Below are positions 34,584 to 62,936 of a DNA stretch of 64,000 nucleotides, piece after piece. Numbering within the stretch: position 1 is the stretch's first letter; every line of letters starts with the position of its first letter. The translations under genes and the position numbers were made by a program. Location of the stretch: NCBI RefSeq assembly GCF_054482525.1, contig NZ_CM137006.1. One strand, given 5' to 3'. The notes under the pieces were generated by a model that ran no database searches, was not told where the DNA came from, and saw nothing but the letters and a program-made list of their open reading frames with translations.

Positions 34584-34611
34584 GGTGCGCATAATGTATA
34601 TTATGTTAAAT
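34584..34611 (+). other. dif: Chromosomal dif site (XerC arm, 6-bp central region, XerD arm)
   Basis: Exact 28-mer GGTGCGCATAATGTATATTATGTTAAAT, the canonical E. coli dif as recalled; phage sequence ends within or next to the central region. Confidence 0.93.
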
Positions 34612-40916: not shown

Positions 40917-41831
40917 ATGGGTAAAACAATAAGTATGAAGCTTCTGTTCGGTATTTATCTTCTATTAATGGCAGGCAAAGTTTTTGCCTTCAGTTGTAAT
41001 GTCGATGGCGGGTCAAGTATTGGAGCAGGTACAACCTCTGTTTATGTTAATCTCGACCCTGTAATACAACCGGGCCAGAATCTGGTTGTAGACTTGTCTC
41101 AGCATATAAGTTGCTGGAATGATTACGGCGGCTGGTACGACACTGATCATATAAACCTGGTACAAGGCTCAGCTTTCGCAGGCTCTCTACAGTCATATAA
41201 AGGATCGCTGTACTGGAATAATGTGACCTACCCCTTCCCGTTGACGACAAATACTAATGTATTAGATATTGGTGATAAGACACCGATGCCATTACCGTTA
41301 AAACTCTATATTACCCCAGTCGGGGCGGCCGGTGGAGTTGTCATAAAAGCCGGGGAAGTTATTGCCCGTATTCATATGTATAAAATTGCCACGTTAGGAA
41401 GCGGAAATCCGCGTAATTTTACGTGGAATATTATTTCAAATAACAGTGTTGTTATGCCAACAGGCGGCTGCACTGTTGATAGTCGTAATGTCACCGTGAA
41501 TCTCCCGGACTTTCCTGGAAGCGCAGAAATACCCCTTGGCGTATATTGCTCAAGCGAACAAAAGCTCTCATTTTATCTTTCGGGTGCCACCACTGACAGT
41601 GCCCGACAAGTGTTTGCTAACACAGCACCAGATGCAACAAAAGCATCGGGAGTGGGTGTCTCTCTGATGCGTAATGGAAAAATACTGGCTACGGGAGAAA
41701 ACGTCTCCCTGGGGACAGTAAATAAAAGCAAAGTACCTCTGGGTTTAAGCGCAACCTATGGACAAACAGGAAACAAGGTTGCAGCCGGAACAGTTCAGTC
41801 AGTCATTGGTGTCACTTTTATCTATGAATAA
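40917..41831 (+). CDS. ydeQ: FimH-like two-domain fimbrial tip adhesin
   Basis: 304 aa with signal peptide; adhesin-sized last gene of the operon; size matches K-12 ydeQ. Confidence 0.8.
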
Positions 41832-41903
41832 TTGTGATTTTGACATTAGTCTATGCGTTCCATTCACGAAAATTGTGCGGATAATTATTTTGTGAAGGCT
41901 ATT

Positions 41904-41921
41904 ATCCTACACTTGTAAGAA
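41904..41921. promoter_or_regulatory. EvgA-box-like inverted repeat upstream of ydeP
   Basis: ATCCTACA-CT-TGTAAGAA resembles the recalled EvgA consensus TTCYTACA-N2-TGTARGAA; ydeP is a known EvgA target. Confidence 0.5.
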
Positions 41922-42169
41922 AATCCGCGCACAATTGAAGCCAGAGTCTTATTTTTTATATTGAAAAACATGTTAATTTAAACACTATGAGAGATGATGC
42001 TTAACTTATCGTATTTATACCATTCTATTATTTAACGATAATAGGTTAAAAATAGATAGAGAGTAGTCCCCTACTCTTATATATCCATATTGACGATAAT
42101 CCCTTTGTATATACTGTGCATCATCGCTATTACAAATCCTAATAATTCATTTCCACACAGGATAAGCAG

Positions 42170-44449
42170 ATGAAGAAAAAAATTGAATCCTACCAGGGAG
42201 CTGCCGGTGGATGGGGTGCTGTTAAATCCGTAGCAAATGCAGTACGTAAGCAGATGGATATACGCCAGGATGTTATTGCCATGTTTGACATGAATAAGCC
42301 AGAGGGCTTTGACTGTCCGGGATGTGCATGGCCAGATCCTAAGCACAGTGCGTCATTCGACATTTGTGAAAACGGCGCAAAAGCAATCGCCTGGGAAGTC
42401 ACGGATAAGCAGGTAAATGCCTCTTTCTTTGCTGAGAATACGGTTCAATCATTACTTACCTGGGGAGATCACGAGCTTGAGGCTGCGGGGCGTCTCACCC
42501 AGCCTTTGAAATATGATGCCGTCAGCGACTGTTACAAGCCATTAAGCTGGCAACAAGCTTTCGACGAAATTGGCGAACGCCTTCAAAGCTATAGTGATCC
42601 CAATCAGGTTGAATTCTATACTTCGGGCCGCACTTCCAATGAAGCTGCCTTTCTTTATCAGCTTTTTGCTCGTGAATACGGGAGCAATAACTTCCCCGAC
42701 TGCTCCAACATGTGCCATGAACCGACCAGTGTGGGTTTGGCAGCGAGTATCGGTGTAGGTAAAGGGACCGTGTTGCTGGAAGACTTTGAGAAATGCGATT
42801 TAGTCATTTGCATTGGGCATAACCCTGGTACAAACCACCCTCGCATGTTGACTTCGTTGCGCGCTTTAGTGAAACGGGGAGCGAAAATGATCGCCATCAA
42901 TCCTCTACAGGAACGTGGCCTGGAGCGATTTACCGCACCGCAAAACCCGTTTGAAATGCTGACGAACTCTGAGACTCAGTTGGCCAGTGCCTACTACAAC
43001 GTGCGCATTGGTGGTGATATGGCGTTGCTCAAGGGGATGATGCGCCTGTTAATTGAGCGCGATGATGCTGCAAGCGCCGCAGGTCGGCCCTCATTGCTGG
43101 ATGACGAATTTATTCAAACGCATACCGTCGGCTTTGACGAGCTACGCCGTGACGTTCTCAATTCCGAGTGGAAAGATATCGAGCGTATTTCTGGACTAAG
43201 TCAGACTCAAATCGCCGAACTGGCTGATGCATATGCCGCTGCCGAACGCACCATTATCTGTTACGGAATGGGGATCACTCAGCACGAACATGGTACCCAG
43301 AATGTACAGCAACTGGTCAATCTGCTGTTGATGAAAGGTAACATTGGCAAGCCTGGTGCGGGTATCTGCCCACTACGAGGTCACTCTAATGTACAGGGCG
43401 ACCGAACCGTCGGTATCACCGAGAAACCGTCTGCAGAGTTTCTGGCTCGCCTGGGTGAGCGCTATGGTTTCACCCCACCTCATGCACCTGGACATGCTGC
43501 AATTGCCAGCATGCAAGCAATATGTACGGGGCAGGCTCGAGCATTGATCTGCATGGGGGGCAACTTTGCACTGGCAATGCCAGATCGGGAAGCGAGCGCT
43601 GTACCGTTAACGCAATTAGATTTGGCGGTACACGTAGCCACTAAGCTTAACCGCTCTCATCTGCTGACCGCACAGCATAGCTATATTCTGCCGGTTCTTG
43701 GGCGTAGCGAGATTGACATGCAAAAAAGCGGTGCGCAGGCGGTAACCGTTGAGGATTCAATGTCGATGATTCATGCCTCGCGTGGCGTGTTAAAACCCGC
43801 CGGTGTAATGCTGAAATCAGAGTGTGCAGTGGTCGCGGGTATCGCGCAGGCGGCACTACCCCAGAGCGTGGTAGCCTGGGAGTATCTGGTGGAAGATTAT
43901 GATCGCATTCGCAATGACATTGAAGCTGTGCTGCCAGAATTCGCCGACTATAACCAGCGCATCCGACATCCTGGAGGTTTTCACCTGATAAACGCAGCTG
44001 CTGAAAGGCGCTGGAGGACGTCGTCAGGTAAGGCTAATTTCATTACCAGCAAAGGGCTGTTAGAAGATCCCTCTTCAGCGTTTAACAGTAAGCTGGTCAT
44101 GGCGACAGTGCGCAGTCACGATCAGTACAATACGACGATTTATGGTATGGATGATCGCTATCGAGGGGTATTCGGTCAACGAGATGTGGTCTTTATGAGT
44201 GCTAAACAAGCTAAAATTTGCCGTGTGAAAAACGGCGAAAGAGTTAATCTTATTGCGCTCACGCCAGACGGTAAGCGCAGCTCACGCCGCATGGATAGAT
44301 TAAAAGTGGTCATTTACCCTATGGCTGACCGCTCACTGGTGACCTATTTTCCAGAATCGAATCACATGCTAACACTTGATAACCACGATCCATTAAGTGG
44401 CATTCCTGGCTATAAAAGTATTCCGGTTGAATTAGAACCATCAAATTAA
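42170..44449 (+). CDS. ydeP: Acid-resistance-associated molybdopterin oxidoreductase YdeP
   Basis: 759 aa; N-terminal Cys motif [11 protein letters not shown]; formate-dehydrogenase-like family; size and sequence match E. coli YdeP as recalled. Confidence 0.9.
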
Positions 44450-44462
44450 TTCGCCTCCTCAT

Positions 44463-44493
44463 TTCTTCTGCTGTCATCCGCACAGCAGAAGAA
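44463..44493 (+). terminator. Stem-loop after ydeP (12-bp perfect stem)
   Basis: TTCTTCTGCTGT-catccgc-ACAGCAGAAGAA followed by T-rich sequence. Confidence 0.55.
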
Positions 44494-44568
44494 TTCCTCA
44501 TTGACCATTGTCGCGCAATTTACTCACATGTGCTAAATTAAACTGCTCGCTATAAGATATATACCTCC

Positions 44569-44585
44569 GCCTACAGCTGTAAGAA
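44569..44585. promoter_or_regulatory. EvgA-box-like inverted repeat upstream of safA-ydeO
   Basis: GCCTACA-GC-TGTAAGAA; safA-ydeO is a known EvgA-activated operon. Confidence 0.5.
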
Positions 44586-44696
44586 ACTCCGCTCAGTACT
44601 GAAGCGCCAATCCTATTTCCTCTTTTCTCCAGCCTGTTATATTAAGCATACTGATTAACGATGCTTAACGTTATTCGCTTAATAAACACATTTGAA

Positions 44697-44894
44697 ATGC
44701 ATGCGACCATAGTGAAAAATAAAATCACGCAAAGAGACAACTATAAAGAGATCATGTTTGTAATTGTGGTTGTCTTATTATTGACACTTACGTTGATAGC
44801 CATTTTTTCGGCGATTGATCAGCTGGGTATTTCAGGAATGGGTCGCATTGCAAGAGATATTACACATTTCATTATCAATAGTTTGCAAGACTGA
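44697..44894 (+). CDS. safA: Small membrane protein SafA (sensor-associated factor linking EvgS/EvgA to PhoQ/PhoP)
   Basis: 65 aa from MHATIVKNKITQRDNYKEIM with a single TM segment; matches K-12 SafA (b1500) as recalled; ORF-track ORF 44661-44894 trimmed to the homologous start. Confidence 0.8.
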   Translation: MHATIVKNKITQRDNYKEIMFVIVVVLLLTLTLIAIFSAIDQLGISGMGRIARDITHFIINSLQD

Positions 44895-44968
44895 AAATAA
44901 ACAGCAAATTATAAATATGAGATGTTAAAAATGTATCGATAAAAACTTTATTGTTTTAAGGAGATAAA

Positions 44969-45730
44969 ATGTCGCTCGTTTGTTCTGTTATATTTATTCA
45001 TCATGCCTTCAACGCTAACATTTTAGATAAAGATTACGCCTTCTCTGACGGCGAGATCCTGATGGTAGATAACGCTGTTCGTACGCATTTTGAACCTTAT
45101 GAGCGGCATTTCAAAGAAATCGGATTTAATGAAAACACCATTAAAAAATATCTACAATGCACTAACATTCAGACAGTGACGGTGCCTGTTCCTGCGAAGT
45201 TTTTACGTGCTTCAAATGTACCGACTGGATTGCTTAATGAAATGATTGCTTATCTCAACTCGGAAGAACGCAATCATCATAATTTTTCAGAACTTTTGCT
45301 TTTTTCCTGCCTGTCTATTTTTGCCGCATGCAAAGGTTTCATTACACTATTAACTAACGGTGTGCTATCCGTTTCCGGGAAAGTGAGAAATATTGTCAAT
45401 ATGAAGCTGGCGCACCCATGGAAACTGAAAGATATTTGTGACTGCCTGTACATCAGTGAAAGCCTGCTCAAGAAAAAACTAAAGCAAGAGCAAACGACAT
45501 TCTCACAGATTCTTTTAGATGCCAGAATGCAGCACGCAAAAAATTTGATACGCGTAGAAGGTTCAGTCAATAAAATTGCCGAGCAATGTGGTTATGCCAG
45601 TACATCTTATTTTATTTATGCGTTCCGCAAACATTTCGGCAACAGTCCGAAGAGAGTTTCTAAGGAGTACCGTTGTCAAAGGCACACGGGAATAAATACG
45701 GGCAACACGATGAATGCTTTAGCTATTTGA
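44969..45730 (+). CDS. ydeO: AraC-family acid-resistance regulator YdeO
   Basis: 253 aa; C-terminal AraC HTH (GYASTSYFIYAFRKHFGNSP); conserved position after safA. Confidence 0.9.
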   Translation: MSLVCSVIFIHHAFNANILDKDYAFSDGEILMVDNAVRTHFEPYERHFKEIGFNENTIKKYLQCTNIQTVTVPVPAKFLRASNVPTGLLNEMIAYLNSEERNHHNFSELLLFSCLSIFAACKGFITLLTNGVLSVSGKVRNIVNMKLAHPWKLKDICDCLYISESLLKKKLKQEQTTFSQILLDARMQHAKNLIRVEGSVNKIAEQCGYASTSYFIYAFRKHFGNSPKRVSKEYRCQRHTGINTGNTMNALAI

Positions 45731-45779
45731 TTATTTGCTAACGAGTAGTCAACCACGCACCCTACGTAAAAATTAAAAC

Positions 45780-45800
45780 GGGGCAGCCATTCCCTGCCCC
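45780..45800 (+). terminator. Rho-independent terminator after ydeO
   Basis: GGGGCAG-ccattcc-CTGCCCC followed by GCGTTGTTTT. Confidence 0.6.
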
Positions 45801-46133
45801 GCGTTGTTTTCAGGCGATATATTTTCATGAGATAAATAAGTGACAGCCGTCACATATTTATGCATTTGCATAACTTGTTGCATGATTATTTATGATCTCA
45901 ATTCTGAATTTTGTCAGTAAAATATAATATATTATTAAATATCAATGGATTAGATGTTTATCAGCGAGAAATTACTTAGTAGAACAGAAAGTAATGTCAA
46001 CGCTTTATGGACTGTTATTTCCCTTTTTTTAGCTAAATCTGCTATCTCTTTATGTGACTAACTTCACTTACATCCACTTATTTCTCTTCGTAAAATTACT
46101 TTGGAATTAAGTACAATAAGAAGAGGAACATTT

Positions 46134-47816
46134 ATGAAGTCTGCATTAAAGAAAAGTGTCGTAAGTACCTCGATATCTTTGATACTGGCATCTGGTATGG
46201 CTGCATTTGCTGCTCATGCGGCAGATGATGTAAAGCTGAAAGCAACCAAAACAAACGTTGCTTTCTCAGACTTTACGCCGACTGAATACAGTACCAAGGG
46301 AAAGCCAAATATTATCGTACTGACTATGGATGATCTTGGTTATGGACAACTTCCTTTTGATAAGGAATCTTTTGACCCAAAAACAATGGAAAATCGTGAA
46401 GTTGTCGATACCTACAAAATAGGGATAGATAAAGCCATTGAAGCTGCGCAAAAATCAACGCCGACGCTCCTTTCATTAATGGATGAAGGCGTACGTTTTA
46501 CTAACGGCTATGTGGCGCACGGTGTTTCCGGCCCCTCCCGCGCCGCAATAATGACCGGTCGAGCGCCCGCCCGCTTTGGTGTCTATTCCAATACCGATGC
46601 TCAGGATGGTATTCCGCTAACAGAAACTTTCTTGCCTGAATTATTCCAGAATCATGGTTATTACACTGCAGCAGTAGGTAAATGGCACTTGTCAAAAATC
46701 AGTAATGTGCCGGTACCGGAAGATAAACAAACGCGTGACTATCATGACAACTTCACCACATTTTCTGCGGAAGAATGGCAACCGCAAAACCGTGGCTTTG
46801 ATTACTTTATGGGATTCCACGCTGCAGGAACGGCATATTACAACTCCCCTTCACTGTTCAAAAACCGTGAACGCGTCCCCGCAAAAGGTTATATTAGCGA
46901 TCAGTTAACCGATGAGGCAATTGGCGTTGTTGATCGTGCCAAAACACTTGACCAGCCTTTTATGCTTTACCTGGCTTATAATGCTCCGCATCTGCCAAAT
47001 GATAATCCTGCACCGGAGCAATATCAGAAGCAATTTAATACCGGTAGTCAAACAGCAGATAACTACTACGCTTCCGTTTATTCTGTTGATCAGGGTGTAA
47101 AACGCATTCTCGAACAACTGAAGAAAAACGGACAGTATGACAATACAATTATTCTCTTTACCTCCGATAATGGTGCGGTTATCGATGGTCCTCTGCCGCT
47201 GAACGGGGCGCAAAAAGGCTATAAGAGTCAGACCTATCCTGGCGGTACTCACACCCCAATGTTTATGTGGTGGAAAGGAAAACTTCAACCCGGTAATTAT
47301 GACAAGCTGATTTCCGCAATGGATTTCTACCCGACAGCTCTTGATGCAGCCGATATCAGCATTCCAAAAGACCTTAAGCTGGATGGCGTTTCCTTGCTGC
47401 CCTGGTTGCAAGATAAGAAACAAGGTGAGCCACATAAAAATCTGACCTGGATAACCTCTTATTCTCACTGGTTTGATGAGGAAAATATTCCCTTCTGGGA
47501 TAATTACCACAAATTTGTCCGCCATCAGTCAGACGATTACCCGCATAACCCCAACACCGAAGATTTAAGCCAATTCTCTTATACGGTGAGAAATAACGAT
47601 TATTCGCTAGTCTATACAGTAGAAAACAATCAGTTAGGTCTCTACAAACTGACGGATCTACAGCAAAAAGATAACCTTGCCGCCGCCAATCCGCAGGTCG
47701 TTAAAGAGATGCAAGGCGTGGTAAGAGAGTTTATCGACAGCAGCCAACCACCGCTTAGCGAGGTAAATCAGGAGAAGTTTAACAATATCAAGAAAGCACT
47801 AAGCGAAGCGAAATAA
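46134..47816 (+). CDS. ydeN: Putative sulfatase YdeN
   Basis: 560 aa from MKSALKK (AAGAGGA Shine-Dalgarno); signal peptide; sulfatase motif region SGPSRAAIMTGR; ORF-track start 46101 trimmed. Confidence 0.85.
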   Translation: MKSALKKSVVSTSISLILASGMAAFAAHAADDVKLKATKTNVAFSDFTPTEYSTKGKPNIIVLTMDDLGYGQLPFDKESFDPKTMENREVVDTYKIGIDKAIEAAQKSTPTLLSLMDEGVRFTNGYVAHGVSGPSRAAIMTGRAPARFGVYSNTDAQDGIPLTETFLPELFQNHGYYTAAVGKWHLSKISNVPVPEDKQTRDYHDNFTTFSAEEWQPQNRGFDYFMGFHAAGTAYYNSPSLFKNRERVPAKGYISDQLTDEAIGVVDRAKTLDQPFMLYLAYNAPHLPNDNPAPEQYQKQFNTGSQTADNYYASVYSVDQGVKRILEQLKKNGQYDNTIILFTSDNGAVIDGPLPLNGAQKGYKSQTYPGGTHTPMFMWWKGKLQPGNYDKLISAMDFYPTALDAADISIPKDLKLDGVSLLPWLQDKKQGEPHKNLTWITSYSHWFDEENIPFWDNYHKFVRHQSDDYPHNPNTEDLSQFSYTVRNNDYSLVYTVENNQLGLYKLTDLQQKDNLAAANPQVVKEMQGVVREFIDSSQPPLSEVNQEKFNNIKKALSEAK

Positions 47817-47828
47817 CTAAACCTTCAT

Positions 47829-47848
47829 GCGGCGGATTTTTCCGCCGC
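47829..47848 (+). terminator. Stem-loop between ydeN and ydeM
   Basis: GCGGCGGA-tttt-TCCGCCGC; weak T-run, so function uncertain. Confidence 0.35.
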
Positions 47849-47867
47849 CTTATTGAGCGAGATAGCG

Positions 47868-49025
47868 ATGCACGTTACAGCCAAGCCCTCCAGTTTTCAA
47901 TGTAATCTCAAATGTGATTACTGTTTTTATCTTGAAAAAGAGTCGCAGTTTACTCATGAAAAATGGATGGATGACAGCACTCTGAAAGAGTTCATCAAAC
48001 AATATATCGCAGCGTCTGGCAATCAGGTCTATTTTACCTGGCAAGGCGGTGAACCCACTCTGGCTGGCCTGGATTTTTTCCGTAAAGTTATTCACTATCA
48101 ACAACGCTATGCAGGCCAAAAACGTATTTTTAATGCATTACAAACGAATGGCATTTTATTGAATAATGAATGGTGTGCCTTTCTCAAAGAACATGAGTTT
48201 TTGGTTGGTATCTCGATCGATGGACCCCAGGAGCTACATGACCGTTACAGACGCAGTAATTCAGGTAACGGTACTTTTGCAAAAGTGATAGCAGCCATCG
48301 AGCGTCTGAAATCATATCAAGTAGAGTTTAATACGTTAACCGTCATTAATAACGTTAATGTCCATTACCCTCTTGAGGTTTATCATTTTTTAAAATCTAT
48401 CGGCAGTAAACATATGCAATTTATCGAATTGCTCGAAACCGGGACGCCGAATATTGATTTCAGTGGTCATAGTGAGAACACATTCCGTATCATTGATTTT
48501 TCTGTGCCTCCCACGGCTTATGGCAAGTTTATGTCAACCATTTTTATGCAATGGGTTAAAAACGATGTGGGTGAAATTTTCATCCGTCAGTTTGAAAGCT
48601 TTGTCAGCCGTTTTTTGGGGAATGGGCATACCAGTTGTATTTTCCAGGAATCCTGCAAGGATAATCTGGTTGTTGAAAGTAATGGAGATATTTACGAATG
48701 CGACCATTTTGTCTATCCACAGTACAAAATTGGAAACATTAATAAATCTGAACTCAAAACGATGAACAGTGTTCAACTGACAGCGCAAAAAAAACGGATT
48801 TCCGCGAAATGTCAGCAATGTGCATATAAACCTATCTGCAATGGCGGTTGTCCTAAGCATCGTATTACTAAAGTAAACAATGAGACTGTTTCCTATTTTT
48901 GTGAAGGTTATAAAATCCTTTTTTCAACCATGGTGCCTTATATGAACGCCATGGTGGAGTTAGCTAAGAACAGAGTACCGCTTTACCACATCATGAATGT
49001 TGCAAGACAAATGGAGAATAATTAA
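47868..49025 (+). CDS. ydeM: Anaerobic sulfatase-maturating enzyme homologue (radical SAM)
   Basis: 385 aa from [21 protein letters not shown] (CxxxCxxC radical-SAM motif); ORF-track start 47853 is a TTG and was trimmed to the ATG. Confidence 0.85.
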
Positions 49026-49078
49026 TAACGCTCCCTCTTAGCTCCAGTCTTAGCCTCCTTCTTATGACCTTAACAAGG

Positions 49079-49104
49079 CACCCGACATAAATTCCTGTCG
49101 GGTG
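49079..49104 (+). terminator. Rho-independent terminator after ydeM
   Basis: CACCCGACA-taaattcc-TGTCGGGTG followed by TTTCGTC. Confidence 0.55.
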
Positions 49105-49315
49105 TTTCGTCATCATCATCTTCCCTTGCGAAAATCCTGGCTTACGTGGTATTCGTCAGGGTATTAGCAATATCCTTGATTATCAATAGTATAACCATAA
49201 CTACTGAAAATGAAGTATTTCTTTATATTTCATATTGTTAAATGATACTTAAATAAATTTCATCAGTAAATCATTGCCATAGATAATCATTGGATGGCAC
49301 AATCAATTTTCGCTA

Positions 49316-51001
49316 ATGATAACCATTCCCATTACGTTTCGTATGTTGATAGCAAAGTATCTCTGTCTGCTGAAGCCCTTTTGGCTGCGTAAGAATAATA
49401 AAACTTCAGTGCTGTTAATCATTATTATCCTCGCCATGATCCTTGGCGTTGTTAAAATTCAGGTCTGGTTAAACGACTGGAATAATGATTTTTTCAATGC
49501 GCTAAGCCAGAAAGAAACCGATAAGCTTTGGCAGCTTGTTCTTTGGTTCCCTGCCCTGCTGGGGATCTTTGTATTAATATCTGTAAACAAAACATGGTTA
49601 ATTAAACTACTGACTATTCGCTGGCGCGAATGGTTAACAGATTACTACCTTAATCGCTGGTTTGCAGATAAAAACTACTACTTCACGCAAATCTACGGCG
49701 AGCATAAAAATACAGATAACCCTGACCAACGTATCGCTGAGGACATTCTCTTACTGATCAGTAAAACGCTCAACCTTTCATTTGGCTTCATCCAGTCGCT
49801 TAGCATGCTTATCACCTTTACCGTTATTCTTTGGCAAAGCGCGGGTACGCTCTCATTCACTGTTGGTGGAACAGAATGGAATATCCAGGGGTATATGGTC
49901 TATACCGTCGTGCTCATTGTGATCGGTGGAACTTTATTTACTCATAAGGTTGGTAAACGTATTCGTCCGCTTAATGTGGAAAAACAACGTAGCGAAGCGA
50001 CATTTCGAACTAATCTTGTGCAGCATAATAAGCAGGCTGAACTGATTGCGCTAAGCAATGCTGAGTCTCTACAACGCCAGGAGTTGAGCGACAATTTTCA
50101 TACCATTAAAGAGAACTGGCATCGTTTAATGAATCGTCAGCGGTGGCTTGATTACTGGCAGAATATTTATTCGCGCTCGCTTAGCGTTCTTCCCTACTTT
50201 CTGTTATTGCCGCAGTTTATTAGCGGACAGATCAATCTGGGCGGACTGATGAAATCGCGCCAGGCATTTATGCTGGTATCGAACAATTTAAGCTGGTTTA
50301 TTTATAAATATGATGAACTTGCTGAACTGGCTGCGGTTATCGATCGCTTGTATGAGTTCCATCAACTCACCGAACAGCGCCCTACAAATAAGCCTAAAAA
50401 TTGCCAACATGCGGTTCAAGTGGCTGACGCGAGTATTCGTACTCCTGATAATAAGGTCATATTAGAGAACCTGAACTTTCATGTTTCGCCAGGCAAATGG
50501 CTATTACTGAAAGGTTACTCTGGTGCGGGAAAAACCACACTGCTTAAAACATTATCCCACTGCTGGCCGTGGTTTAAAGGTGATATTTCGTCTCCTGCTG
50601 ACAGTTGGTATGTGTCACAAACACCGTTAATAAAAACCGGCTTACTGAAAGAGATAATTTGTAAAGCACTTCCCCTACCCGTGGATGATAAATCGTTGAG
50701 CGAAGTACTGCATCAGGTTGGTCTGGGGAAATTGGCTGCGCGTATTCATGACCACGATCGCTGGGGAGATATTCTTTCCAGCGGCGAAAAACAACGTATC
50801 GCGCTGGCACGATTAATTTTACGACGTCCGAAATGGATATTTCTTGACGAAACTACCTCTCATCTTGAGGAACAAGAGGCTATCCGCTTACTGCGTTTAG
50901 TGCGTGAAAAACTACCCTCAAGCGGCGTCATTATGGTTACACATCAACCCGGTGTCTGGAACCTGGCCGATGATATTTGTGACATTAGCGCGGTTTTATA
51001 A
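49316..51001 (+). CDS. yddA: ABC transporter, fused permease/ATP-binding protein YddA
   Basis: 561 aa; N-terminal TM region; C-terminal ABC ATPase with Walker A GYSGAGKTT and signature LSSGEKQR. Confidence 0.85.
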   Translation: MITIPITFRMLIAKYLCLLKPFWLRKNNKTSVLLIIIILAMILGVVKIQVWLNDWNNDFFNALSQKETDKLWQLVLWFPALLGIFVLISVNKTWLIKLLTIRWREWLTDYYLNRWFADKNYYFTQIYGEHKNTDNPDQRIAEDILLLISKTLNLSFGFIQSLSMLITFTVILWQSAGTLSFTVGGTEWNIQGYMVYTVVLIVIGGTLFTHKVGKRIRPLNVEKQRSEATFRTNLVQHNKQAELIALSNAESLQRQELSDNFHTIKENWHRLMNRQRWLDYWQNIYSRSLSVLPYFLLLPQFISGQINLGGLMKSRQAFMLVSNNLSWFIYKYDELAELAAVIDRLYEFHQLTEQRPTNKPKNCQHAVQVADASIRTPDNKVILENLNFHVSPGKWLLLKGYSGAGKTTLLKTLSHCWPWFKGDISSPADSWYVSQTPLIKTGLLKEIICKALPLPVDDKSLSEVLHQVGLGKLAARIHDHDRWGDILSSGEKQRIALARLILRRPKWIFLDETTSHLEEQEAIRLLRLVREKLPSSGVIMVTHQPGVWNLADDICDISAVL

Positions 51002-51038
51002 AAACAATAAAAGCCCTGCTGTACGGAGATAAAAATAA

Positions 51039-53411
51039 ATGAAGCGAGTTCTTATTCCTGGCGTCATTTTATGTGGCGCTGATGTGGCGCAGGCCGTCGA
51101 TGACAAAAACATGTACATGCATGTTTTTGAAGAGATGACGGTCTATGCTCCTGTCCCTGTACCCGTAAACGGCAACACGCATTACACCAGTGAAAGCATC
51201 GAGCGTTTACCGACCGGGAATGGCAATATCAGCGATCTGCTGAGAACAAACCCTGCGGTGCGCATGGATTCAACGCAAAGTACCTCGTTGAACCAGGGCG
51301 ATATTCGCCCGGAGAAAATCTCTATTCACGGTGCGTCGCCCTACCAGAATGCCTATTTGATTGACGGTATTAGTGCAACTAATAACCTGAACCCAGCGAA
51401 TGAGTCCGATGCCAGTAGTGCAACCAATATTAGCGGGATGTCACAGGGGTATTATCTTGATGTCAGCTTACTGGACAATGTGACGCTTTATGACAGTTTT
51501 GTGCCGGTTGAATTTGGTCGCTTCAATGGCGGGGTAATTGATGCAAAGATCAAACGCTTCAACGCTGATGATAGCAGCGTGAAACTGGGTTACCGCACTA
51601 CGCGTTCGGACTGGTTAACATCGCATATCGATGAGAATAACAAGAGCGCATTTAATCAAGGTTCTTCAGGAAGTACTTATTTCTCTCCAGATTTTAAAAA
51701 GAACTTTTATACCTTGTCGTTTAATCAGGAACTGGCTGATAACTTTGGCGTTACTGCCGGTTTATCGCGCCGCCAGTCTGATATCACCCGCGCGGATTAT
51801 GTTTCGAATGACGGCATTGTCGCCGGTCGGGCACAGTATAAAAATGTTATCGATACCGCATTGAGCAAATTTACCTGGTTTGCCAGCGACCGCTTTACCC
51901 ACGATTTAACCTTAAAATATACCGGCTCCAGTCGTGATTATAATACCAGCACCTTCCCGCAGTCTGATCGCGAAATGGGTAATAAATCCTACGGTCTGGC
52001 ATGGGATATGGATACGCAACTTGCATGGGCCAAACTACGTACCACCGTTGGTTGGGATCATATTAGTGATTATACCCGTCACGATCATGACATCTGGTAC
52101 ACCGAACTTTCATGTACATATGGTGATATTACAGGGCGTTGCACCCGTGGCGGATTAGGACACATTTCCCAGGCTGTAGATAATTACACCTTCAAAACAC
52201 GCCTGGACTGGCAAAAATTCACCGTGGGTAATGTTTCGCATCAACCCTACTTCGGCGCGGAATACATCTATTCCGATGCATGGACTGAACGCCATAACCA
52301 GTCTGAATCCTATGTGATTAATGCTGCCGGAAAGAAAACTAACCATACCATTTACCATAAAGGTAAAGGCAGCCTGGGAATTGACAACTACACGCTGTAT
52401 ATGGCGGATCGCATTAGCTGGCGTAATGTGTCATTAATGCCCGGCGTGCGGTATGACTATGACAACTATCTGTCAAACCACAATATCTCCCCGCGCTTTA
52501 TGACGGAATGGGATATTTTTGCTGATCAAACCTCAATGATTACCGCAGGTTATAACCGTTACTATGGCGGGAATATTCTTGATATGGGATTACGTGATAT
52601 CCGCAATAGCTGGACGGAATCGGTATCAGGCAATAAAACCCTGACGCGTTATCAGGATTTGAAAACACCTTATAACGATGAACTGGCAATGGGGTTGCAG
52701 CAGAAAATCGGTAAGAACGTTATTGCGCGTGCAAACTATGTTTATCGTGAAGCGCATGATCAAATCAGTAAAAGCAGTCGTACCGACAGCGCGACTAAAA
52801 CTACCATTACTGAATATAACAACGACGGCAAAACCAAAACGCATTCGTTCAACCTCAGTTTTGAACTGGCCGAACCCCTGCATATCAGCCAGGTAGATAT
52901 TAACCCGCAAATTGTCTTTAGCTATATCAAGAGCAAGGGCAACTTGTCGTTAAACAATGGTTATGAGGAAAGCAATACCGGTGATAACCAGGTGGTTTAT
53001 AACGGTAATCTGGTCTCTTACGATAGCGTTCCAGTGGCAGATTTTAATAACCCATTAAAGATCTCCTTAAACATGGATTTCACGCATCAACCGAGCGGGT
53101 TGGTGTGGGCGAATACGCTGGCCTGGCAAGAAGCGCGTAAAGCTCGCATTATCCTTGGTAAGACAAATGCGCAATACATCAGTGAATATTCAGATTACAA
53201 GCAGTATGTTGACGAAAAACTGGATAGCAGCCTGACCTGGGACACCCGCTTGTCCTGGACGCCACAATTTTTTAAACAACAAAACCTGACGATCAGTGCC
53301 GATATTCTCAATGTACTGGATAGCAAAACCGCGGTTGATACAACGAATACCGGTGTGGCGACCTACGCCAGTGGCCGTACTTTCTGGCTTGATGTCAGCA
53401 TGAGATTTTAA
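51039..53411 (+). CDS. yddB: TonB-dependent-receptor-like outer-membrane protein YddB
   Basis: 790 aa with signal peptide, beta-barrel character, C-terminal aromatic residue (F); follows yddA as in K-12. Confidence 0.8.
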   Translation: MKRVLIPGVILCGADVAQAVDDKNMYMHVFEEMTVYAPVPVPVNGNTHYTSESIERLPTGNGNISDLLRTNPAVRMDSTQSTSLNQGDIRPEKISIHGASPYQNAYLIDGISATNNLNPANESDASSATNISGMSQGYYLDVSLLDNVTLYDSFVPVEFGRFNGGVIDAKIKRFNADDSSVKLGYRTTRSDWLTSHIDENNKSAFNQGSSGSTYFSPDFKKNFYTLSFNQELADNFGVTAGLSRRQSDITRADYVSNDGIVAGRAQYKNVIDTALSKFTWFASDRFTHDLTLKYTGSSRDYNTSTFPQSDREMGNKSYGLAWDMDTQLAWAKLRTTVGWDHISDYTRHDHDIWYTELSCTYGDITGRCTRGGLGHISQAVDNYTFKTRLDWQKFTVGNVSHQPYFGAEYIYSDAWTERHNQSESYVINAAGKKTNHTIYHKGKGSLGIDNYTLYMADRISWRNVSLMPGVRYDYDNYLSNHNISPRFMTEWDIFADQTSMITAGYNRYYGGNILDMGLRDIRNSWTESVSGNKTLTRYQDLKTPYNDELAMGLQQKIGKNVIARANYVYREAHDQISKSSRTDSATKTTITEYNNDGKTKTHSFNLSFELAEPLHISQVDINPQIVFSYIKSKGNLSLNNGYEESNTGDNQVVYNGNLVSYDSVPVADFNNPLKISLNMDFTHQPSGLVWANTLAWQEARKARIILGKTNAQYISEYSDYKQYVDEKLDSSLTWDTRLSWTPQFFKQQNLTISADILNVLDSKTAVDTTNTGVATYASGRTFWLDVSMRF

Positions 53412-53455
53412 TAGTTCGGATTTTACTTAACCGGGTAAATTCGCCCGGTTTTCGC

Positions 53456-56251
53456 ATGGAGATAATTATGAGAAACCTCTGTTTCTTACTGACGTTAGTG
53501 GCAACTCTGTTGCTCCCCGGGCGACTGTTTGCCGCCGCCTTACCGCAGGATGAAAAGTTAATTACCGGGCAACTGGACAATGGCTTGCGATATATGATTT
53601 ATCCGCATGCTCAACCAAAGGATCAGGTAAATTTATGGCTGCAAATTCATACGGGTTCATTGCAGGAAGAAGCCAATGAGCGCGGCGTGGCTCATTTTGT
53701 AGAACATATGATGTTTAACGGCACAAAAACATGGCCGGGTAATAAAGTCATCGAAACATTTGAGTCGATGGGTCTGCGCTTTGGTCGCGATGTTAATGCC
53801 TATACCAGCTATGACGAAACGGTGTATCAGGTGAGTTTGCCGACTACGCAGAAACAAAATCTGCAACAAGTGATGGCAATATTCAGTGAATGGGGTAATG
53901 CCGCAACCTTTGATAAACTCGAAGTAGACGCTGAACGCGGCGTAATTACTGAGGAATGGCGTGCCCATCAGGATGTGAAATGGCGCACCTCTCAGGCACG
54001 CCGCCCTTTCCTGCTGGCAAATACCCGTAATTTAGACCGTGAACCTATCGGCCTGATGGATACTGTCGCCACGGTCACACCGGCACAATTGCGCCAATTT
54101 TATCAACGCTGGTATCAACCAAATAATATGACCTTTATCGTGGTCGGCGATATTGACAGTAAAGAAGCGCTGGCGCTGATAAAGGATAATTTAAGTAAGC
54201 TTACGGCTAACAAAGCAGCTGAAAATCGCGTCTGGCCGACTAAAGCAGAAAACCACCTGCGCTTTAATATCATTAATGATAAAGAAAACCGGGTGAACGG
54301 CATCGCTCTCTATTATCGCCTGCCAATGGTACAAGTGAACGATGAGCAAAGCTTTATCGAACAAGCTGAATGGAGCATGTTAGTTCAGCTGTTCAATCAA
54401 CGTCTGCAGGAACGCATACAGTCGGGCGAGTTGAAGACTATTTCTGGCGGCACTGCGCGCAGCGTTAAAATTGCACCCGATTATCAGTCGCTGTTTTTCC
54501 GTGTAAATGCACGAGACGATAATATGCAGGATGCTGCGAATGCATTAATGGCAGAGTTGGCAACCATTGATCAGCATGGTTTTTCTGCTGAAGAACTCGA
54601 TGATGTCAAATCTACCCGCCTCACCTGGCTGAAAAATGCGGTTGATCAGCAAGCTGAACGTGATTTACGTATGCTGACCAGTCGCCTGGCATCCAGCTCA
54701 TTAAATAATACGCCGTTCTTGTCGCCGGAAGAGACATATCAACTTTCGAAACGTCTGTGGCAGCAAATTACCGTGCAAAGTCTGGCGAAAAAATGGCAGC
54801 AGTTAAGAAAGAACCAGGACGCATTTTGGGAGCAAATGGTAAACAATGAGGTTGCCGCCAAAAAAGCATTGTCTCCTGCGGCTATCCTGGCGCTGGAAAA
54901 AGAGTACGCCAACAAAAAGCTGGCGGCTTACATCTTCCCAGGCAGAAATTTATCGTTAACAGTAGACGCTGACCCACAGGCGGAAATTAGCAGCAAAGAA
55001 ACGCTGGCTGAGAATCTGACATCATTAACACTTTCTAATGGTGCCAGGGTTATTCTGGCAAAATCCGCGGGTGAAGAGCAAAAGCTACAAATTACTGCCG
55101 TATCTAATAAAGGCGATTTAAGTTTCCCTGCGCAGCAAAAATCACTTATCGCGCTGGCAAATAAAGCAGTAAGCGGAAGCGGCGTTGGTGAACTCTCCTC
55201 TTCCAGCCTGAAACGCTGGAGTGCGGAAAACTCGGTAACCATGAGCAGTAAAGTCAGTGGCATGAATACGTTGCTCTCCGTTAGCGCGCGGGCTAATAAC
55301 CCTGAACCTGGTTTCCAGTTGATTAACCAGCGAATCACCCACAGCACGATTAACGACAATATTTGGGCATCGCTACAAAATGCTCAAATTCAGGCGTTGA
55401 AAACGCTCGACCAGCGTCCAGCGGAGAAATTCGCCCAGCAGATGTATGAGACGCGCTATGCTGATAACCGCACGAAATTACTGCAAGAAAATCAGATTGC
55501 ACAGTTTACTGCCGCAGATGCGCTGGCTGCCGATCGCCAGTTGTTTTCATCTCCAGCGGATATCACGTTTGTCATTGTCGGTGATGTCGCAGAAGACAAA
55601 CTTCTTCCGTTAATTACGCGTTACTTAGGCTCAATCAAACACTATGATTCGCCATTAGCCGCAGGTAAACCATTAACTCGCGCGACGGACAATGCATCGG
55701 TTACGGTAAAAGAACAAAATGAACCTGTGGTACAGGTTTCACAGTGGAAGCGTTATGATTCCTGGACACCTGTAAATCTGGCGACGCGTATGGCGCTCGA
55801 TGCTTTTAACGTCGCACTGGCAAAAGATCTACGCATTAATATTCGTGAACAGGCATCTGGGGCATACAGCGTTTCTTCTCGCCTCTCGATTGATCCTCAG
55901 GCCAAAGATATCAGTCATTTGCTGGCTTTTACTTGTCAACCGGAACGACATGATGAACTGTTAACGTTAGCGAATGAAGTGATGGTTAAGCGTCTGGCTA
56001 AAGGGATCAGTGAGCAAGAACTGAACGAATACCAGCAAAACGTTCAGCGCAGCCTCGATATCCAACAGCGTAGCGTTCAACAATTAGCGAACACCATTGT
56101 AAATAGTCTTATTCAATATGACGATCCTGCAGCATGGACTGAGCAGGAGCAATTGTTGAAACAAATGACGGTAGAGAATGTTAACACTGCCGTTAAACAA
56201 TATCTTTCTCATCCGGTGAATACCTATACCGGAGTATTATTGCCAAAATAA
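53456..56251 (+). CDS. pqqL: Periplasmic zinc metalloprotease PqqL (M16 family)
   Basis: 931 aa; inverted zinc-binding motif HFVEH; signal peptide; alternative start at 53468 (MRNLC, GGAG Shine-Dalgarno) because a hairpin at 53429-53450 ends 6 bp before 53456. Confidence 0.85.
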   Translation: MEIIMRNLCFLLTLVATLLLPGRLFAAALPQDEKLITGQLDNGLRYMIYPHAQPKDQVNLWLQIHTGSLQEEANERGVAHFVEHMMFNGTKTWPGNKVIETFESMGLRFGRDVNAYTSYDETVYQVSLPTTQKQNLQQVMAIFSEWGNAATFDKLEVDAERGVITEEWRAHQDVKWRTSQARRPFLLANTRNLDREPIGLMDTVATVTPAQLRQFYQRWYQPNNMTFIVVGDIDSKEALALIKDNLSKLTANKAAENRVWPTKAENHLRFNIINDKENRVNGIALYYRLPMVQVNDEQSFIEQAEWSMLVQLFNQRLQERIQSGELKTISGGTARSVKIAPDYQSLFFRVNARDDNMQDAANALMAELATIDQHGFSAEELDDVKSTRLTWLKNAVDQQAERDLRMLTSRLASSSLNNTPFLSPEETYQLSKRLWQQITVQSLAKKWQQLRKNQDAFWEQMVNNEVAAKKALSPAAILALEKEYANKKLAAYIFPGRNLSLTVDADPQAEISSKETLAENLTSLTLSNGARVILAKSAGEEQKLQITAVSNKGDLSFPAQQKSLIALANKAVSGSGVGELSSSSLKRWSAENSVTMSSKVSGMNTLLSVSARANNPEPGFQLINQRITHSTINDNIWASLQNAQIQALKTLDQRPAEKFAQQMYETRYADNRTKLLQENQIAQFTAADALAADRQLFSSPADITFVIVGDVAEDKLLPLITRYLGSIKHYDSPLAAGKPLTRATDNASVTVKEQNEPVVQVSQWKRYDSWTPVNLATRMALDAFNVALAKDLRINIREQASGAYSVSSRLSIDPQAKDISHLLAFTCQPERHDELLTLANEVMVKRLAKGISEQELNEYQQNVQRSLDIQQRSVQQLANTIVNSLIQYDDPAAWTEQEQLLKQMTVENVNTAVKQYLSHPVNTYTGVLLPK

Positions 56252-56513
56252 TAACAGCCCCGTCAACACCTCGTTGGCGGGGATTTTAGCAATATTCGCC
56301 ATTTTTATGTAATAATTTTATAAATGCGTTCAAAATAATAGCCGAGTGCTAATAATGATATTTTAAGGTCTGATTTTTACGCGATAATTCATGAGGCATA
56401 GAAAGCGCATAAAAATAACAACATAAAACACCTTACTACCACCCAACAATTCTCTATTGTATTGTTTTTTAATGAAAAAACATTATTCGCGCAATATTTC
56501 ACGATAAATAACA

Positions 56514-56533
56514 TTAGGATTTTGTTATTTAAA
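56514..56533 (+). promoter_or_regulatory. GAD box (GadE binding site) upstream of gadB
   Basis: Exact 20-mer TTAGGATTTTGTTATTTAAA, the recalled GAD-box sequence, 80 bp upstream of the gadB ATG. Confidence 0.75.
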
Positions 56534-56612
56534 CCCGAGTCCTTTGCACTTGCTTACTTTATCGATAAATCCTACTTTTTTAATGCGATCCAATCATTTT
56601 AAGGAGTTTAAA

Positions 56613-58013
56613 ATGGATAAGAAGCAAGTAACGGATTTAAGGTCGGAACTACTCGATTCACGTTTTGGTGCGAAGTCTATTTCCACTATCGCAGAATCAA
56701 AACGTTTTCCGCTGCACGAAATGCGCGATGATGTCGCATTCCAGATTATCAATGACGAATTATATCTTGATGGCAACGCTCGTCAGAACCTGGCCACTTT
56801 CTGCCAGACCTGGGACGACGAAAATGTCCATAAGTTGATGGATTTATCCATTAACAAAAACTGGATCGACAAAGAAGAATATCCGCAATCTGCAGCCATC
56901 GACCTGCGTTGCGTAAACATGGTTGCCGATCTGTGGCATGCGCCTGCGCCGAAAAATGGTCAGGCCGTTGGCACCAACACCATTGGTTCTTCCGAGGCCT
57001 GTATGCTCGGCGGGATGGCGATGAAATGGCGTTGGCGCAAGCGTATGGAAGCCGCAGGCAAACCAACAGATAAACCAAACCTGGTGTGCGGTCCGGTACA
57101 AATCTGCTGGCATAAATTCGCCCGCTACTGGGATGTGGAGCTGCGTGAGATCCCTATGCGCCCCGGTCAGTTGTTTATGGACCCGAAACGCATGATTGAA
57201 GCCTGCGACGAAAACACCATCGGCGTGGTGCCGACTTTCGGCGTGACCTATACCGGTAACTATGAGTTCCCGCAACCGCTGCACGATGCGCTGGATAAAT
57301 TCCAGGCCGACACCGGCATCGACATCGACATGCACATCGACGCCGCCAGCGGTGGCTTCCTGGCACCGTTCGTCGCCCCGGATATCGTCTGGGACTTCCG
57401 CCTGCCGCGTGTGAAATCGATCAGTGCTTCAGGCCATAAATTCGGTCTGGCTCCGCTGGGCTGTGGCTGGGTTATCTGGCGTGATGAAGAAGCGCTGCCG
57501 CAGGAACTGGTGTTCAACGTTGACTATCTCGGTGGTCAGATTGGGACTTTCGCCATCAACTTCTCCCGCCCGGCGGGTCAGGTGATTGCACAGTACTATG
57601 AATTCCTGCGCCTTGGTCGTGAAGGCTATACCAAAGTACAGAACGCTTCCTACCAGGTCGCTGCCTATCTGGCGGATGAAATCGCCAAACTGGGGCCGTA
57701 TGAGTTCATCTGTACCGGTCGCCCGGACGAAGGCATTCCGGCGGTTTGCTTCAAACTGAAAGATGGTGAAGATCCGGGATACACCCTGTATGACCTCTCT
57801 GAACGTCTGCGTCTGCGCGGCTGGCAGGTTCCAGCCTTCACTCTCGGCGGTGAAGCCACTGACATCGTGGTGATGCGCATTATGTGTCGTCGCGGCTTCG
57901 AAATGGACTTTGCTGAACTGTTGCTGGAAGACTACAAAGCCTCCCTGAAATATCTCAGCGATCACCCGAAACTGCAGGGTATTGCCCAGCAGAACAGCTT
58001 TAAACATACCTGA
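56613..58013 (+). CDS. gadB: Glutamate decarboxylase beta (PLP-dependent)
   Basis: 466 aa from [19 protein letters not shown]; immediately upstream of gadC; ORF-track ORF 56544-58013 trimmed to the homologous ATG. Confidence 0.93.
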
Positions 58014-58023
58014 TAACGTTTAA

Positions 58024-58049
58024 CGGTAACGGTGTCCCGAAACGCACCC
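58024..58049 (+). terminator. Stem-loop in the gadB-gadC intergenic region (attenuator or partial terminator)
   Basis: GTCCCGAAACG-cacc-CGTTTCGGGAC (11-bp stem). Confidence 0.4.
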
Positions 58050-58168
58050 GTTTCGGGACAATTTCCAAAGTCTGTTCACTGGCATTAGCAACGGAAAATA
58101 TTGTTCTGAATACGCTTCAGAACAAAACAGGTGCGGTTCCGACAGGAATACCGTTTTAGGGGGATAAT

Positions 58169-59704
58169 ATGGCTACATCAGTACAGACAGGTAAAGCTAA
58201 GCAGCTCACATTACTCGGATTTTTTGCCATAACGGCATCGATGGTAATGGCTGTTTATGAATACCCTACCTTCGCAACATCGGGCTTTTCATTAGTCTTC
58301 TTCCTGCTATTAGGCGGGATTTTATGGTTTATTCCCGTGGGACTTTGTGCTGCGGAAATGGCCACCGTCGACGGCTGGGAAGAAGGTGGTGTCTTCGCCT
58401 GGGTATCAAATACTCTGGGGCCGAGATGGGGATTTGCAGCGATCTCATTTGGCTATCTGCAAATCGCCATTGGTTTTATTCCGATGCTCTATTTCGTGTT
58501 AGGGGCACTCTCCTACATCCTGAAATGGCCAGCGCTGAATGAAGACCCCATTACCAAAACTATTGCAGCACTCATCATTCTTTGGGCGCTGGCATTAACG
58601 CAGTTTGGTGGCACGAAATACACGGCGCGAATCGCTAAAGTTGGCTTCTTCGCCGGTATCCTGTTACCTGCATTTATTTTGATCGCATTAGCGGCTATTT
58701 ATTTGCACTCCGGTGCCCCCGTTGCTATCGAAATGGATTCGAAGACCTTCTTCCCTGACTTCTCTAAAGTGGGCACCCTGGTTGTATTTGTTGCCTTCAT
58801 TTTGAGTTATATGGGGGTAGAAGCATCTGCAACCCACGTCAATGAAATGAGCAACCCAGGGCGCGACTATCCGTTGGCTATGTTACTGCTGATGGTGGCG
58901 GCAATCTGCTTAAGCTCTGTTGGCGGTTTGTCTATTGCGATGGTCATTCCGGGTAATGAAATCAACCTCTCCGCAGGGGTAATGCAAACCTTTACCGTTC
59001 TGATGTCCCATGTGGCACCGGAAATTGAGTGGACGGTTCGCGTGATCTCCGCACTGCTGTTGCTGGGTGTTCTGGCGGAAATCGCTTCCTGGATTGTTGG
59101 CCCTTCTCGCGGTATGTATGTGACTGCGCAGAAAAACCTGCTACCCGCTGCGTTCGCCAAAATGAATAAAAATGGCGTGCCAGTAACGCTGGTTATTTCT
59201 CAGTTGGTAATTACTTCCATCGCGTTGATTATCCTCACCAATACTGGTGGTGGTAACAACATGTCCTTCCTGATCGCACTGGCGCTGACGGTGGTGATTT
59301 ATCTGTGTGCTTATTTCATGCTGTTTATTGGCTACATTGTGTTGGTTCTTAAACATCCTGACTTAAAACGCACATTTAATATCCCTGGTGGTAAAGGGGT
59401 GAAACTGGTCGTGGCTGTTGTCGGTCTGCTGACTTCAATTATGGCGTTTATTGTTTCCTTCCTGCCGCCGGATAACATCCAGGGTGACTCTACCGATATG
59501 TATGTTGAATTACTGGTCGTTAGTTTCCTGGTGGTACTTGCCCTGCCCTTTATTCTCTATGCTGTTCATGATCGTAAAGGCAAAGCGAATACCGGCGTCA
59601 CTCTGGAGCCAATCAACAGTAAGAACGCACCAAAAGGTCACTTCTTCCTGCACCCGCGTGCACGTTCACCACACTATATTGTGATGAATGACAAGAAACA
59701 CTAA
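58169..59704 (+). CDS. gadC: Glutamate:GABA antiporter
   Basis: 511 aa, polytopic membrane protein (APC family); follows gadB. Confidence 0.93.
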
Positions 59705-59728
59705 CCGTGGCTGAATGGTTATAAGACA

Positions 59729-59753
59729 AGGGAGCGATAATTCATCGCTCCCT
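59729..59753 (+). terminator. Rho-independent terminator after gadC
   Basis: AGGGAGCGAT-aattc-ATCGCTCCCT followed by TTTTCGT. Confidence 0.7.
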
Positions 59754-59834
59754 TTTTCGTGCTCGCTGTCGTATTGACTTAACCGGGATAAGTACGAGAA
59801 TGAGCGCACATCTGTTTACCGGAAACCAGCATAT

Positions 59835-61154: not shown

Positions 61155-61529
61155 ACTCCCATTCTTACTTTGTAACAAGCCGGTGCTTTCCCCCCGGCTT
61201 GTAACCCTCTTGAAATATCCCACTAGTAATCATGCTTACTTAAGTCAAATTAACTACGCAATTAACCACACTTAGTTAAACAGTCATAAATCCCCTAATA
61301 AAAATGTATGAATATGAAAAAACATACGATATTCGCTGTCACCGAAAAATAATTACGATGGGCTATACTCTTCTGAAGAACAGTAGCGTAGATTGAAACT
61401 GTCCTAAGTCGCTTATTTGTTTTCAGTATATCTTCATATTTCAGGAGAATATGGTGCAGTTAGTCGATCTCGCACGTTGCGTTTCGTTTTGATTCCGTCT
61501 GCTTTCCCAGCCTTATAAGGGTGTGAATT

Positions 61530-62912: not shown

Positions 62913-62936
62913 ATGCGCCAGGATGCAGAGGTAATC

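Follow-up and report, generated by a model that had tools for sequence, protein, structure and literature searches.

The ydeP and safA-ydeO locus

Positions 41500–45800 of the window (the whole stretch of DNA analysed here, 64,000 nucleotides long) are 100% identical to Escherichia coli PCN033 and to two other genomes. A match over at least 80% of this interval is present in 5305 of 5426 complete E. coli genomes. Annotation of the identical locus gives the gene order ydeQ (fimbrial), ydeP, safA, ydeO and ydeN, which bears out the gene names that an initial annotation had assigned. The features are collected in Table 1. The G+C content of ydeP is about 50%, against 39–43% in the neighbouring genes. 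The stem that directly follows ydeP has no T-run after it, so it would be a weak terminator at best, ahead of the safA promoter. A search of 41700–45100 against Rfam with E-values up to 1 returned no match. For the ydeP leader, the predicted fold beats those of shuffled sequences by a modest margin (z = -2.15), and it contains a long-range helix that pairs 41990–42000 with 42118–42128.

Table 1. Features of the ydeP and safA-ydeO locus, in window coordinates.
Feature	Position	Strand	Basis
EvgA box, ydeP side, ATCCTACA-CT-TGTAAGAA	41904..41921	+	consensus match, core, matrix, conservation
Putative ~104-bp cassette (box and next 86 nt), ydeP copy	41904..42007	+	in-register homology to 44568-44671
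Alternative sigma-70-like promoter, ydeP, TTGAAG-16 nt-TATATT	41935..41962	+	consensus scan
Extended -10-like element, ydeP, TGtTAATTT	41971..41979	+	invariant in 11 strains except free 'n'
ydeP CDS, 759 aa, acid-resistance putative oxidoreductase	42170..44449	+	annotation
Perfect 12-bp stem with 7-nt loop, right after ydeP	44463..44493	+	sequence
EvgA box, safA-ydeO side, CGCCTACA-GC-TGTAAGAA	44568..44585	+	consensus, core, matrix, conservation, RegulonDB safAp
Putative ~104-bp cassette, safA copy	44568..44671	+	in-register homology to 41904-42007
Equivalent of RegulonDB safAp +1 (T)	44628	+	PMC12096072 Table S2
Extended -10-like element, safA, TGtTATATT	44635..44643	+	same offset from box as in ydeP
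safA CDS, 65 aa, connector activating PhoQ	44697..44894	+	annotation
ydeO CDS, AraC-family activator of gadE	44969..45730	+	annotation

Detection of two EvgA boxes

Two inverted repeats flank ydeP. Direct reading of the letters places ATCCTACACTTGTAAGAA on the + strand at 41904–41921, upstream of ydeP, and GCCTACAGCTGTAAGAA at 44569–44585, on the safA side. The initial annotation had listed both, and the exact letters are found there; the full 18-bp register of the safA-side repeat begins one base earlier and adds C44568 in front. The ydeP box ends 248 nt before the ydeP ATG (42170) and the safA box 111 nt before the annotated safA ATG (44697). A repeat finder left both boxes unreported because their arms are below its length threshold.

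Compared with the consensus TTCYTACA-NN-TGTARGAA, the ydeP box has one mismatch and the safA box two, every one of them at the two outermost positions of the half-site farther from the promoter. With up to three mismatches allowed, this consensus has two matches in 64 kb, a number without significance by itself (1.19 expected; 31 of 100 shuffles reach two). We therefore relied on a core-motif test and a weight-matrix test instead. The 16-nt core common to both boxes, CCTACANNTGTAAGAA, has exactly two copies in the 64 kb where 0.02 would be expected, and none of 100 shuffles contained two.

The weight matrix was symmetrised and trained on five K-12 sites only (emrK/evgA, frc, yfdX twice and yegR), none of which comes from this locus. 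The ydeP box scores 22.1 bits and the safA box 17.3 bits, which makes them the top two sites of the 64-kb window; the next-best site scores 9.75 bits. The training sites themselves score 17.4–24.5 bits. Simulated windows, 200 in all, had a mean top score of 12.95 bits, and the second-best was at most 15.81 bits throughout. A scan with an EvgA position weight matrix had been suggested in the initial annotation as a check, and both boxes pass it.

We take the K-12 EvgA box to be the 18-bp TTCYTACA-N2-TGTARGAA found at ydeP, b1500(safA)-ydeO, yfdX, yfdW(frc), emrK/evgA and yegR. Masuda and Church, in 2003, reportedly discovered this 18-bp repeat by computational motif finding, demonstrated gel shifts and introduced mutations into the copies that precede ydeP and b1500-ydeO. 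The work of Itou et al. in 2009 is said to be a second source for this set of boxes.

The consensus given in the initial annotation, inverted TTCYTACA half-sites with a 2-bp spacer, recovers the other EvgA-target intergenic regions of K-12 when this locus is left out. In the 20 kb around evgAS it gives four matches (0.31 expected), all of them intergenic: one between emrK and evgA, one upstream of frc and two at yfdX. The upstream region of yegR holds a site with one mismatch. Convergent halves with a 2-bp spacer are the arrangement common to the EvgA-target intergenic regions tested. The upstream region of K-12 gadE has no box with three or fewer mismatches. The sole match in the gadE region falls within mdtE, and chance can account for it (18 of 200 shuffles). 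The inverted repeats at yfdX and yfdWUVE, which occupy the same positions as the K-12 consensus matches, are bound by EvgA (PMC3720670), and every gene known to be directly regulated by EvgA carries an EvgA binding site (PMC4283999).

Conservation of the boxes

We compared 11 lineages: the window, K-12, O157:H7, ST131, UPEC 536, four other complete genomes and two loci from a species-representative collection. The sequence CCTAC(A/G)NNTGTAAGAA is invariant in both promoters across all 11. Variation in the boxes touches only the spacer, the two outermost positions of the distal half and, in the divergent lineage L008 alone, a single inner base. UPEC 536 has lost ydeQ through a deletion that stops about 30 bp upstream of the ydeP box, which is intact. 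The existence of the two sites, their match to the motif and their conservation are thus direct observations of this analysis.

The K-12 alleles are AGCCTACACCTGTAAGAA at ydeP and TGCCTACAGCTGTAAGAA at safA. The former, AGCCTACA-CC-TGTAAGAA, differs from the window at two positions, and the latter, TGCCTACA-GC-TGTAAGAA, at one. At position 2 of the ydeP box the window has T and K-12 has G; T is nearer the consensus and is the majority allele among the 11 strains. At position 1 of the safA box the window has C and K-12 has T, and here C is farther from the consensus. Box alleles unlike those of K-12 could shift EvgA affinity slightly.

YdeP has relatives outside Escherichia, the closest in Edwardsiella (85% amino-acid identity), with 67% identity in Yersinia rohdei. 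The ydeP orthologue loci of Edwardsiella, Yersinia rohdei, Raoultella, Tatumella and Burkholderiaceae hold no box: the top matrix scores are at most 10.1 bits, and none of the top-scoring sites lies just upstream of the gene. This fits the confinement of EvgS/EvgA, like that of SafA, to E. coli and Shigella (PMC9496106). PMC5706723 likewise describes EvgAS as restricted to E. coli/Shigella and as present in virtually every sequenced E. coli; in the present genome, evgAS would be located beyond the 64-kb window.

Promoter architecture

Both promoters contain a conserved TGnTAWWTT element 50–58 nt past the end of the box. Only its 'n' varies among the 11 strains, from T to C in L008, alike in both promoters. 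In each case TGn precedes a -10-like hexamer, a pattern that would fit an extended -10 promoter. Transcription starts predicted from these elements fall near A41987 for ydeP and near A44650 for safA, which would put the centre of each box near -74. The 178-nt leader used for ydeP of K-12 (PMC11210196) maps to this same A41987 and fits the prediction, provided that its boundary is a mapped start site. For safA the prediction disagrees with the RegulonDB +1, which lies 22 nt upstream of the predicted start and places the box at -60 to -43, centred on -51.5.

Under either geometry the box ends before the -35 region begins, and neither promoter has a good -35 hexamer, so both promoters are expected to be activator-dependent. 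Because the box lies wholly upstream of -35, a good -35 hexamer is lacking and TGnTAWWTT is conserved, we favour a class-I-like model in which EvgA, from a box centred near -74, would recruit RNA polymerase to an extended -10 promoter. This geometry is predicted from sequence features and is favoured only tentatively.

Similarity of the two promoters

The likeness of the two promoters extends well past the boxes. The 86 nt that follow each box are identical at 55 of 86 positions in a single ungapped register. For comparison, about 128,000 other positions of the window, on both strands, gave a mean of 22.8 identities (sd 4.3) and a best of 41. Outside this stretch the flanks are at background, with 10 of 43 positions identical upstream and 20 of 74 downstream. 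The block right behind each box (41922–41941 and 44586–44605) is conserved. The identity over the 86 nt is 50–55 in each of the 11 strains, and local alignment of the K-12 ydeP and safA promoters gives z = 9.7. Among the other pairs of EvgA promoters in K-12, only the overlapping yfdX sites and, weakly, emrK/evgA (z = 4.3) resemble each other. A cassette common to all EvgA promoters was considered and rejected: only ydeP/safA is strong, with z = 2.3 for ydeP/yegR, which have ATTTAAACACTA in common, and z = 1.4–1.9 for frc/yfdX.

The match extends beyond both candidate start sites and takes in 10 identical bases, GATGCTTAAC, which would be part of the transcribed leader if the starts are near 41987 and 44650. 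This extent favours duplication over convergence. From their alignment, we favour the reading that a single EvgA-responsive cassette of about 104 bp, made up of box, spacer, extended -10-like element and the beginning of the leader, was duplicated to give the ydeP and safA-ydeO promoters. The copies stand in direct orientation, 2.66 kb apart, on either side of ydeP. Copying may have wired a horizontally acquired ydeP into the EvgA regulon, a proposal on which we are evenly divided. A foreign origin of ydeP would be in keeping with its higher G+C content than its neighbours and with the absence of an EvgA box at its closest non-Escherichia relative, in Edwardsiella. The secondary literature on EvgA that was searched makes no mention of a cassette duplication.

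Discussion

EvgA control of ydeP and safA-ydeO is textbook knowledge and ordinary core regulation. The initial annotation had named both as direct EvgA targets, a claim that published statements (PMC7174508, PMC8174306, PMC9496106) and the independent matrix support. It had also presented the sites as expected core regulation that confirms the identity of the locus, and this holds: known EvgA control is met again in an E. coli other than K-12. EvgA binding at both boxes and activation of both promoters are supported by the literature.

The proposed chain of events is as follows. At mildly acidic pH the EvgS kinase phosphorylates EvgA, a response regulator of the NarL/FixJ type. Each 18-bp inverted repeat would be the site for one phosphorylated EvgA dimer, and EvgA~P at the ydeP box and at the safA-ydeO box would activate both promoters. 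The predicted output is YdeP, for acid resistance; SafA, which activates PhoQ/PhoP; and YdeO, which activates gadE and through it the GAD system. We hold it very probable that both promoters are activated by EvgA~P from these boxes; the class-I-like geometry and the cassette duplication are what we infer in addition.

The two palindromes might be chance matches in AT-rich intergenic DNA with no regulatory role, and the count of consensus matches with up to three mismatches, which is about that of shuffled sequence, would allow it. The rarity of the core and the lead of the two boxes in the matrix scan, over the next site of the window and over the second-best scores of simulated windows, speak against chance. 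So do the invariance of the core across 11 lineages, in intergenic DNA of which only 49–53% of columns are otherwise invariant, and the presence of the same motif at every other EvgA-target intergenic region. Chance is effectively refuted, and we give it next to no weight. A different proposal assigns the boxes, as operators, to another NarL/LuxR-family member of the acid network (RcsB or GadE, for instance), with EvgA acting indirectly. The half-sites of RcsB and BvgA are similarly TTCCTA-like, which makes it conceivable that one family member recognises the sites of another. This proposal is nevertheless highly improbable, given that convergent halves with a 2-bp spacer recur at all EvgA-target intergenic regions and that both promoters are tied to EvgA by published work. 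The ydeP promoter is a direct EvgA target free of control by GadE, GadW, GadX and RpoS (PMC7174508), direct EvgA regulation is described for ydeP and emrKY (PMC8174306), and PMC9496106, citing Itou 2009, states that EvgA binds the safA-ydeO promoter directly.

The details of geometry and origin are more contested. Transcription could instead start at 44628 in safA and, by homology, at about 41964–41969 in ydeP. The box would then abut the -35 region with its centre at -51.5, and EvgA would contact RNA polymerase at the -35 edge, not from about -74. The RegulonDB safAp entry, whose sequence begins exactly at the K-12 box (reprinted in PMC12096072 Table S2), points this way, as does the TTGAAG-16-TATATT candidate in ydeP. 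However, safA would then have to rely on TTTCCT, a poor -10, and in L008 no part of the cassette is less conserved than this pyrimidine tract. Two strains have a changed TTGAAG hexamer, the length of the ydeP leader (178 nt) agrees with the downstream start, and the TGnTAWWTT elements are invariant at one common offset. We regard this upstream start as a serious but doubtful candidate. The likeness over about 104 bp, for its part, could reflect convergent constraint from contacts with EvgA, RNA polymerase or a common repressor (YdeO or PhoP). Published work describes negative feedback at both promoters: YdeO is a repressor of its own gene and, by an indirect route, of ydeP (PMC11210196), and PhoP lowers safA expression (bioRxiv 10.64898/2026.05.06.723403). 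The cassettes are also more conserved than their surroundings, with 75–80% invariant columns among the 11 strains against 49–53% in the rest of the intergenic DNA. Against constraint stand the single ungapped register over 86 nt, with GATGCTTAAC in the would-be leader, and the want of a comparable match in any other pair of EvgA promoters beyond the overlapping yfdX sites and the weak emrK/evgA pair. Nor does conservation among strains differ significantly between positions alike in both copies and the remaining ones (Fisher p = 0.17). Shared functional constraint could account for the similarity in part; as the whole explanation we find it rather unlikely.

The boxes show that this strain has kept the upper level of the EvgA-YdeO-GadE acid-resistance cascade intact, and they confirm the identity of the locus. 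The disagreement over the safA start between the database and the conserved -10-like element is a small addition. The duplicated cassettes, if true, would be a small but concrete case of regulon growth through promoter copying.

Comparison with known systems

The predicted geometry resembles that of class I extended -10 sigma-70 promoters, in which the activator site lies upstream of -35, a -35 hexamer is absent and TGn precedes a -10-like hexamer. It differs in that the start here is predicted from sequence, and the RegulonDB start of safA disagrees with it.

The BvgA promoters of Bordetella (e.g. fha) also pair a NarL-family regulator with a TTCCTA-like inverted repeat well upstream of -35. 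There, further dimers fill the DNA from the primary site down to -35. Between box and promoter at the present locus, the only 8-mer half-sites are T-rich ones with two mismatches, none convincing as a secondary EvgA site, so a BvgA-style array of several dimers lacks sequence support. EvgA takes its name from the BvgA system (PMC9496106).

The closest parallel is the EvgA box system of K-12, which has the same genes, the same motif and the same distances to the start codons (243–248 nt and 111 nt); the differences are allelic only.

Tandem array of filamentous-phage genes

The first ~34.6 kb of the window is occupied by a tandem array. Every unit carries genes for proteins of filamentous phages, namely a replication protein of the gII type, an attachment protein resembling gIII, a secretin and a Zot-like protein. 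An exact copy of the E. coli dif site marks the end of the array, which there adjoins the fimA-chaperone-usher-ydeSRQ operon. Strain PCN033 lacks the array and is otherwise collinear with the window from ~34560 to 64000. The array has the appearance of an inovirus prophage inserted at dif as tandem copies. It may instead have arisen from such a prophage as an artefact of assembly. Features are listed in the table.

Coordinates of features in the window
Feature	Position	Description
Tandem array	1-34640	About four perfectly identical copies of an 8743-bp unit
dif site	34584-34611	Exact copy of E. coli dif; array end
Imperfect inverted repeat	41871-41882 and 41923-41936	AATTGTGCGGAT and ATCCGCGCACAATT; off-centre about the ydeP EvgA box
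ydeP leader	41987-42169	~183 nt
Hairpin after ydeP	44463-44493	Perfect 12-bp stem, 7-nt loop
gadB, gadC	~56600-59700	Placed by collinearity with PCN033

Sequences flanking ydeP

Both arms of the inverted repeat flanking the ydeP EvgA box are conserved among strains, the left arm reading AATTGTGCGGAT in the window and AATTGCGCGGAT in most strains. It seems unlikely to be a protein site of fixed spacing because a 12-bp insertion separates the left arm from the box in the divergent E. coli lineage L008. Within the ydeP leader, two complementary segments (41990-42000 and 42118-42128) are fully conserved, and the hairpin at 42059-42078 is also conserved. Folding of the leader gave z = -2.15 relative to shuffles, and it matched no Rfam family. 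The stem of the hairpin 3' of ydeP is kept in L008, where the loop is CATCCGC rather than the usual ACGGATG, that is, its reverse complement with one change, apparently through an inversion of the hairpin in this lineage.

Origin of ydeP and its locus in other assemblies

The following observations hint at horizontal transfer of ydeP (42170-44449): its G+C content is ~50%, compared with 39-43% in neighbouring genes; its closest relatives outside Escherichia in a species-representative collection are Edwardsiella genes (84-85% amino-acid identity; L009, L010 and L012); and no other Escherichia species is represented among the 50 ydeP loci found in that collection. The EvgA box is absent upstream of the Edwardsiella relatives.

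A contig binned in a 'Candidatus Nanosynbacter' metagenome-assembled genome (JARKOR010000108.1, L007) carries the E. coli ydeP-safA locus with 99% protein identity and K-12-type EvgA boxes; almost certainly, the bin was contaminated with E. coli DNA. In uropathogenic strain 536 (L063), a deletion has taken out some of the fimbrial operon along with ydeQ. Its breakpoint is ~30 bp upstream of the EvgA box of ydeP, and both the box and the promoter are intact.

Downstream acid-resistance genes

From 44905 to 64000 the window is 99.98% identical to PCN033. By collinearity with this strain, gadB and gadC, downstream targets of the EvgA-YdeO-GadE cascade, are also placed in the window, with ydeN, ydeM, yddA, yddB and pqqL separating them from ydeO.
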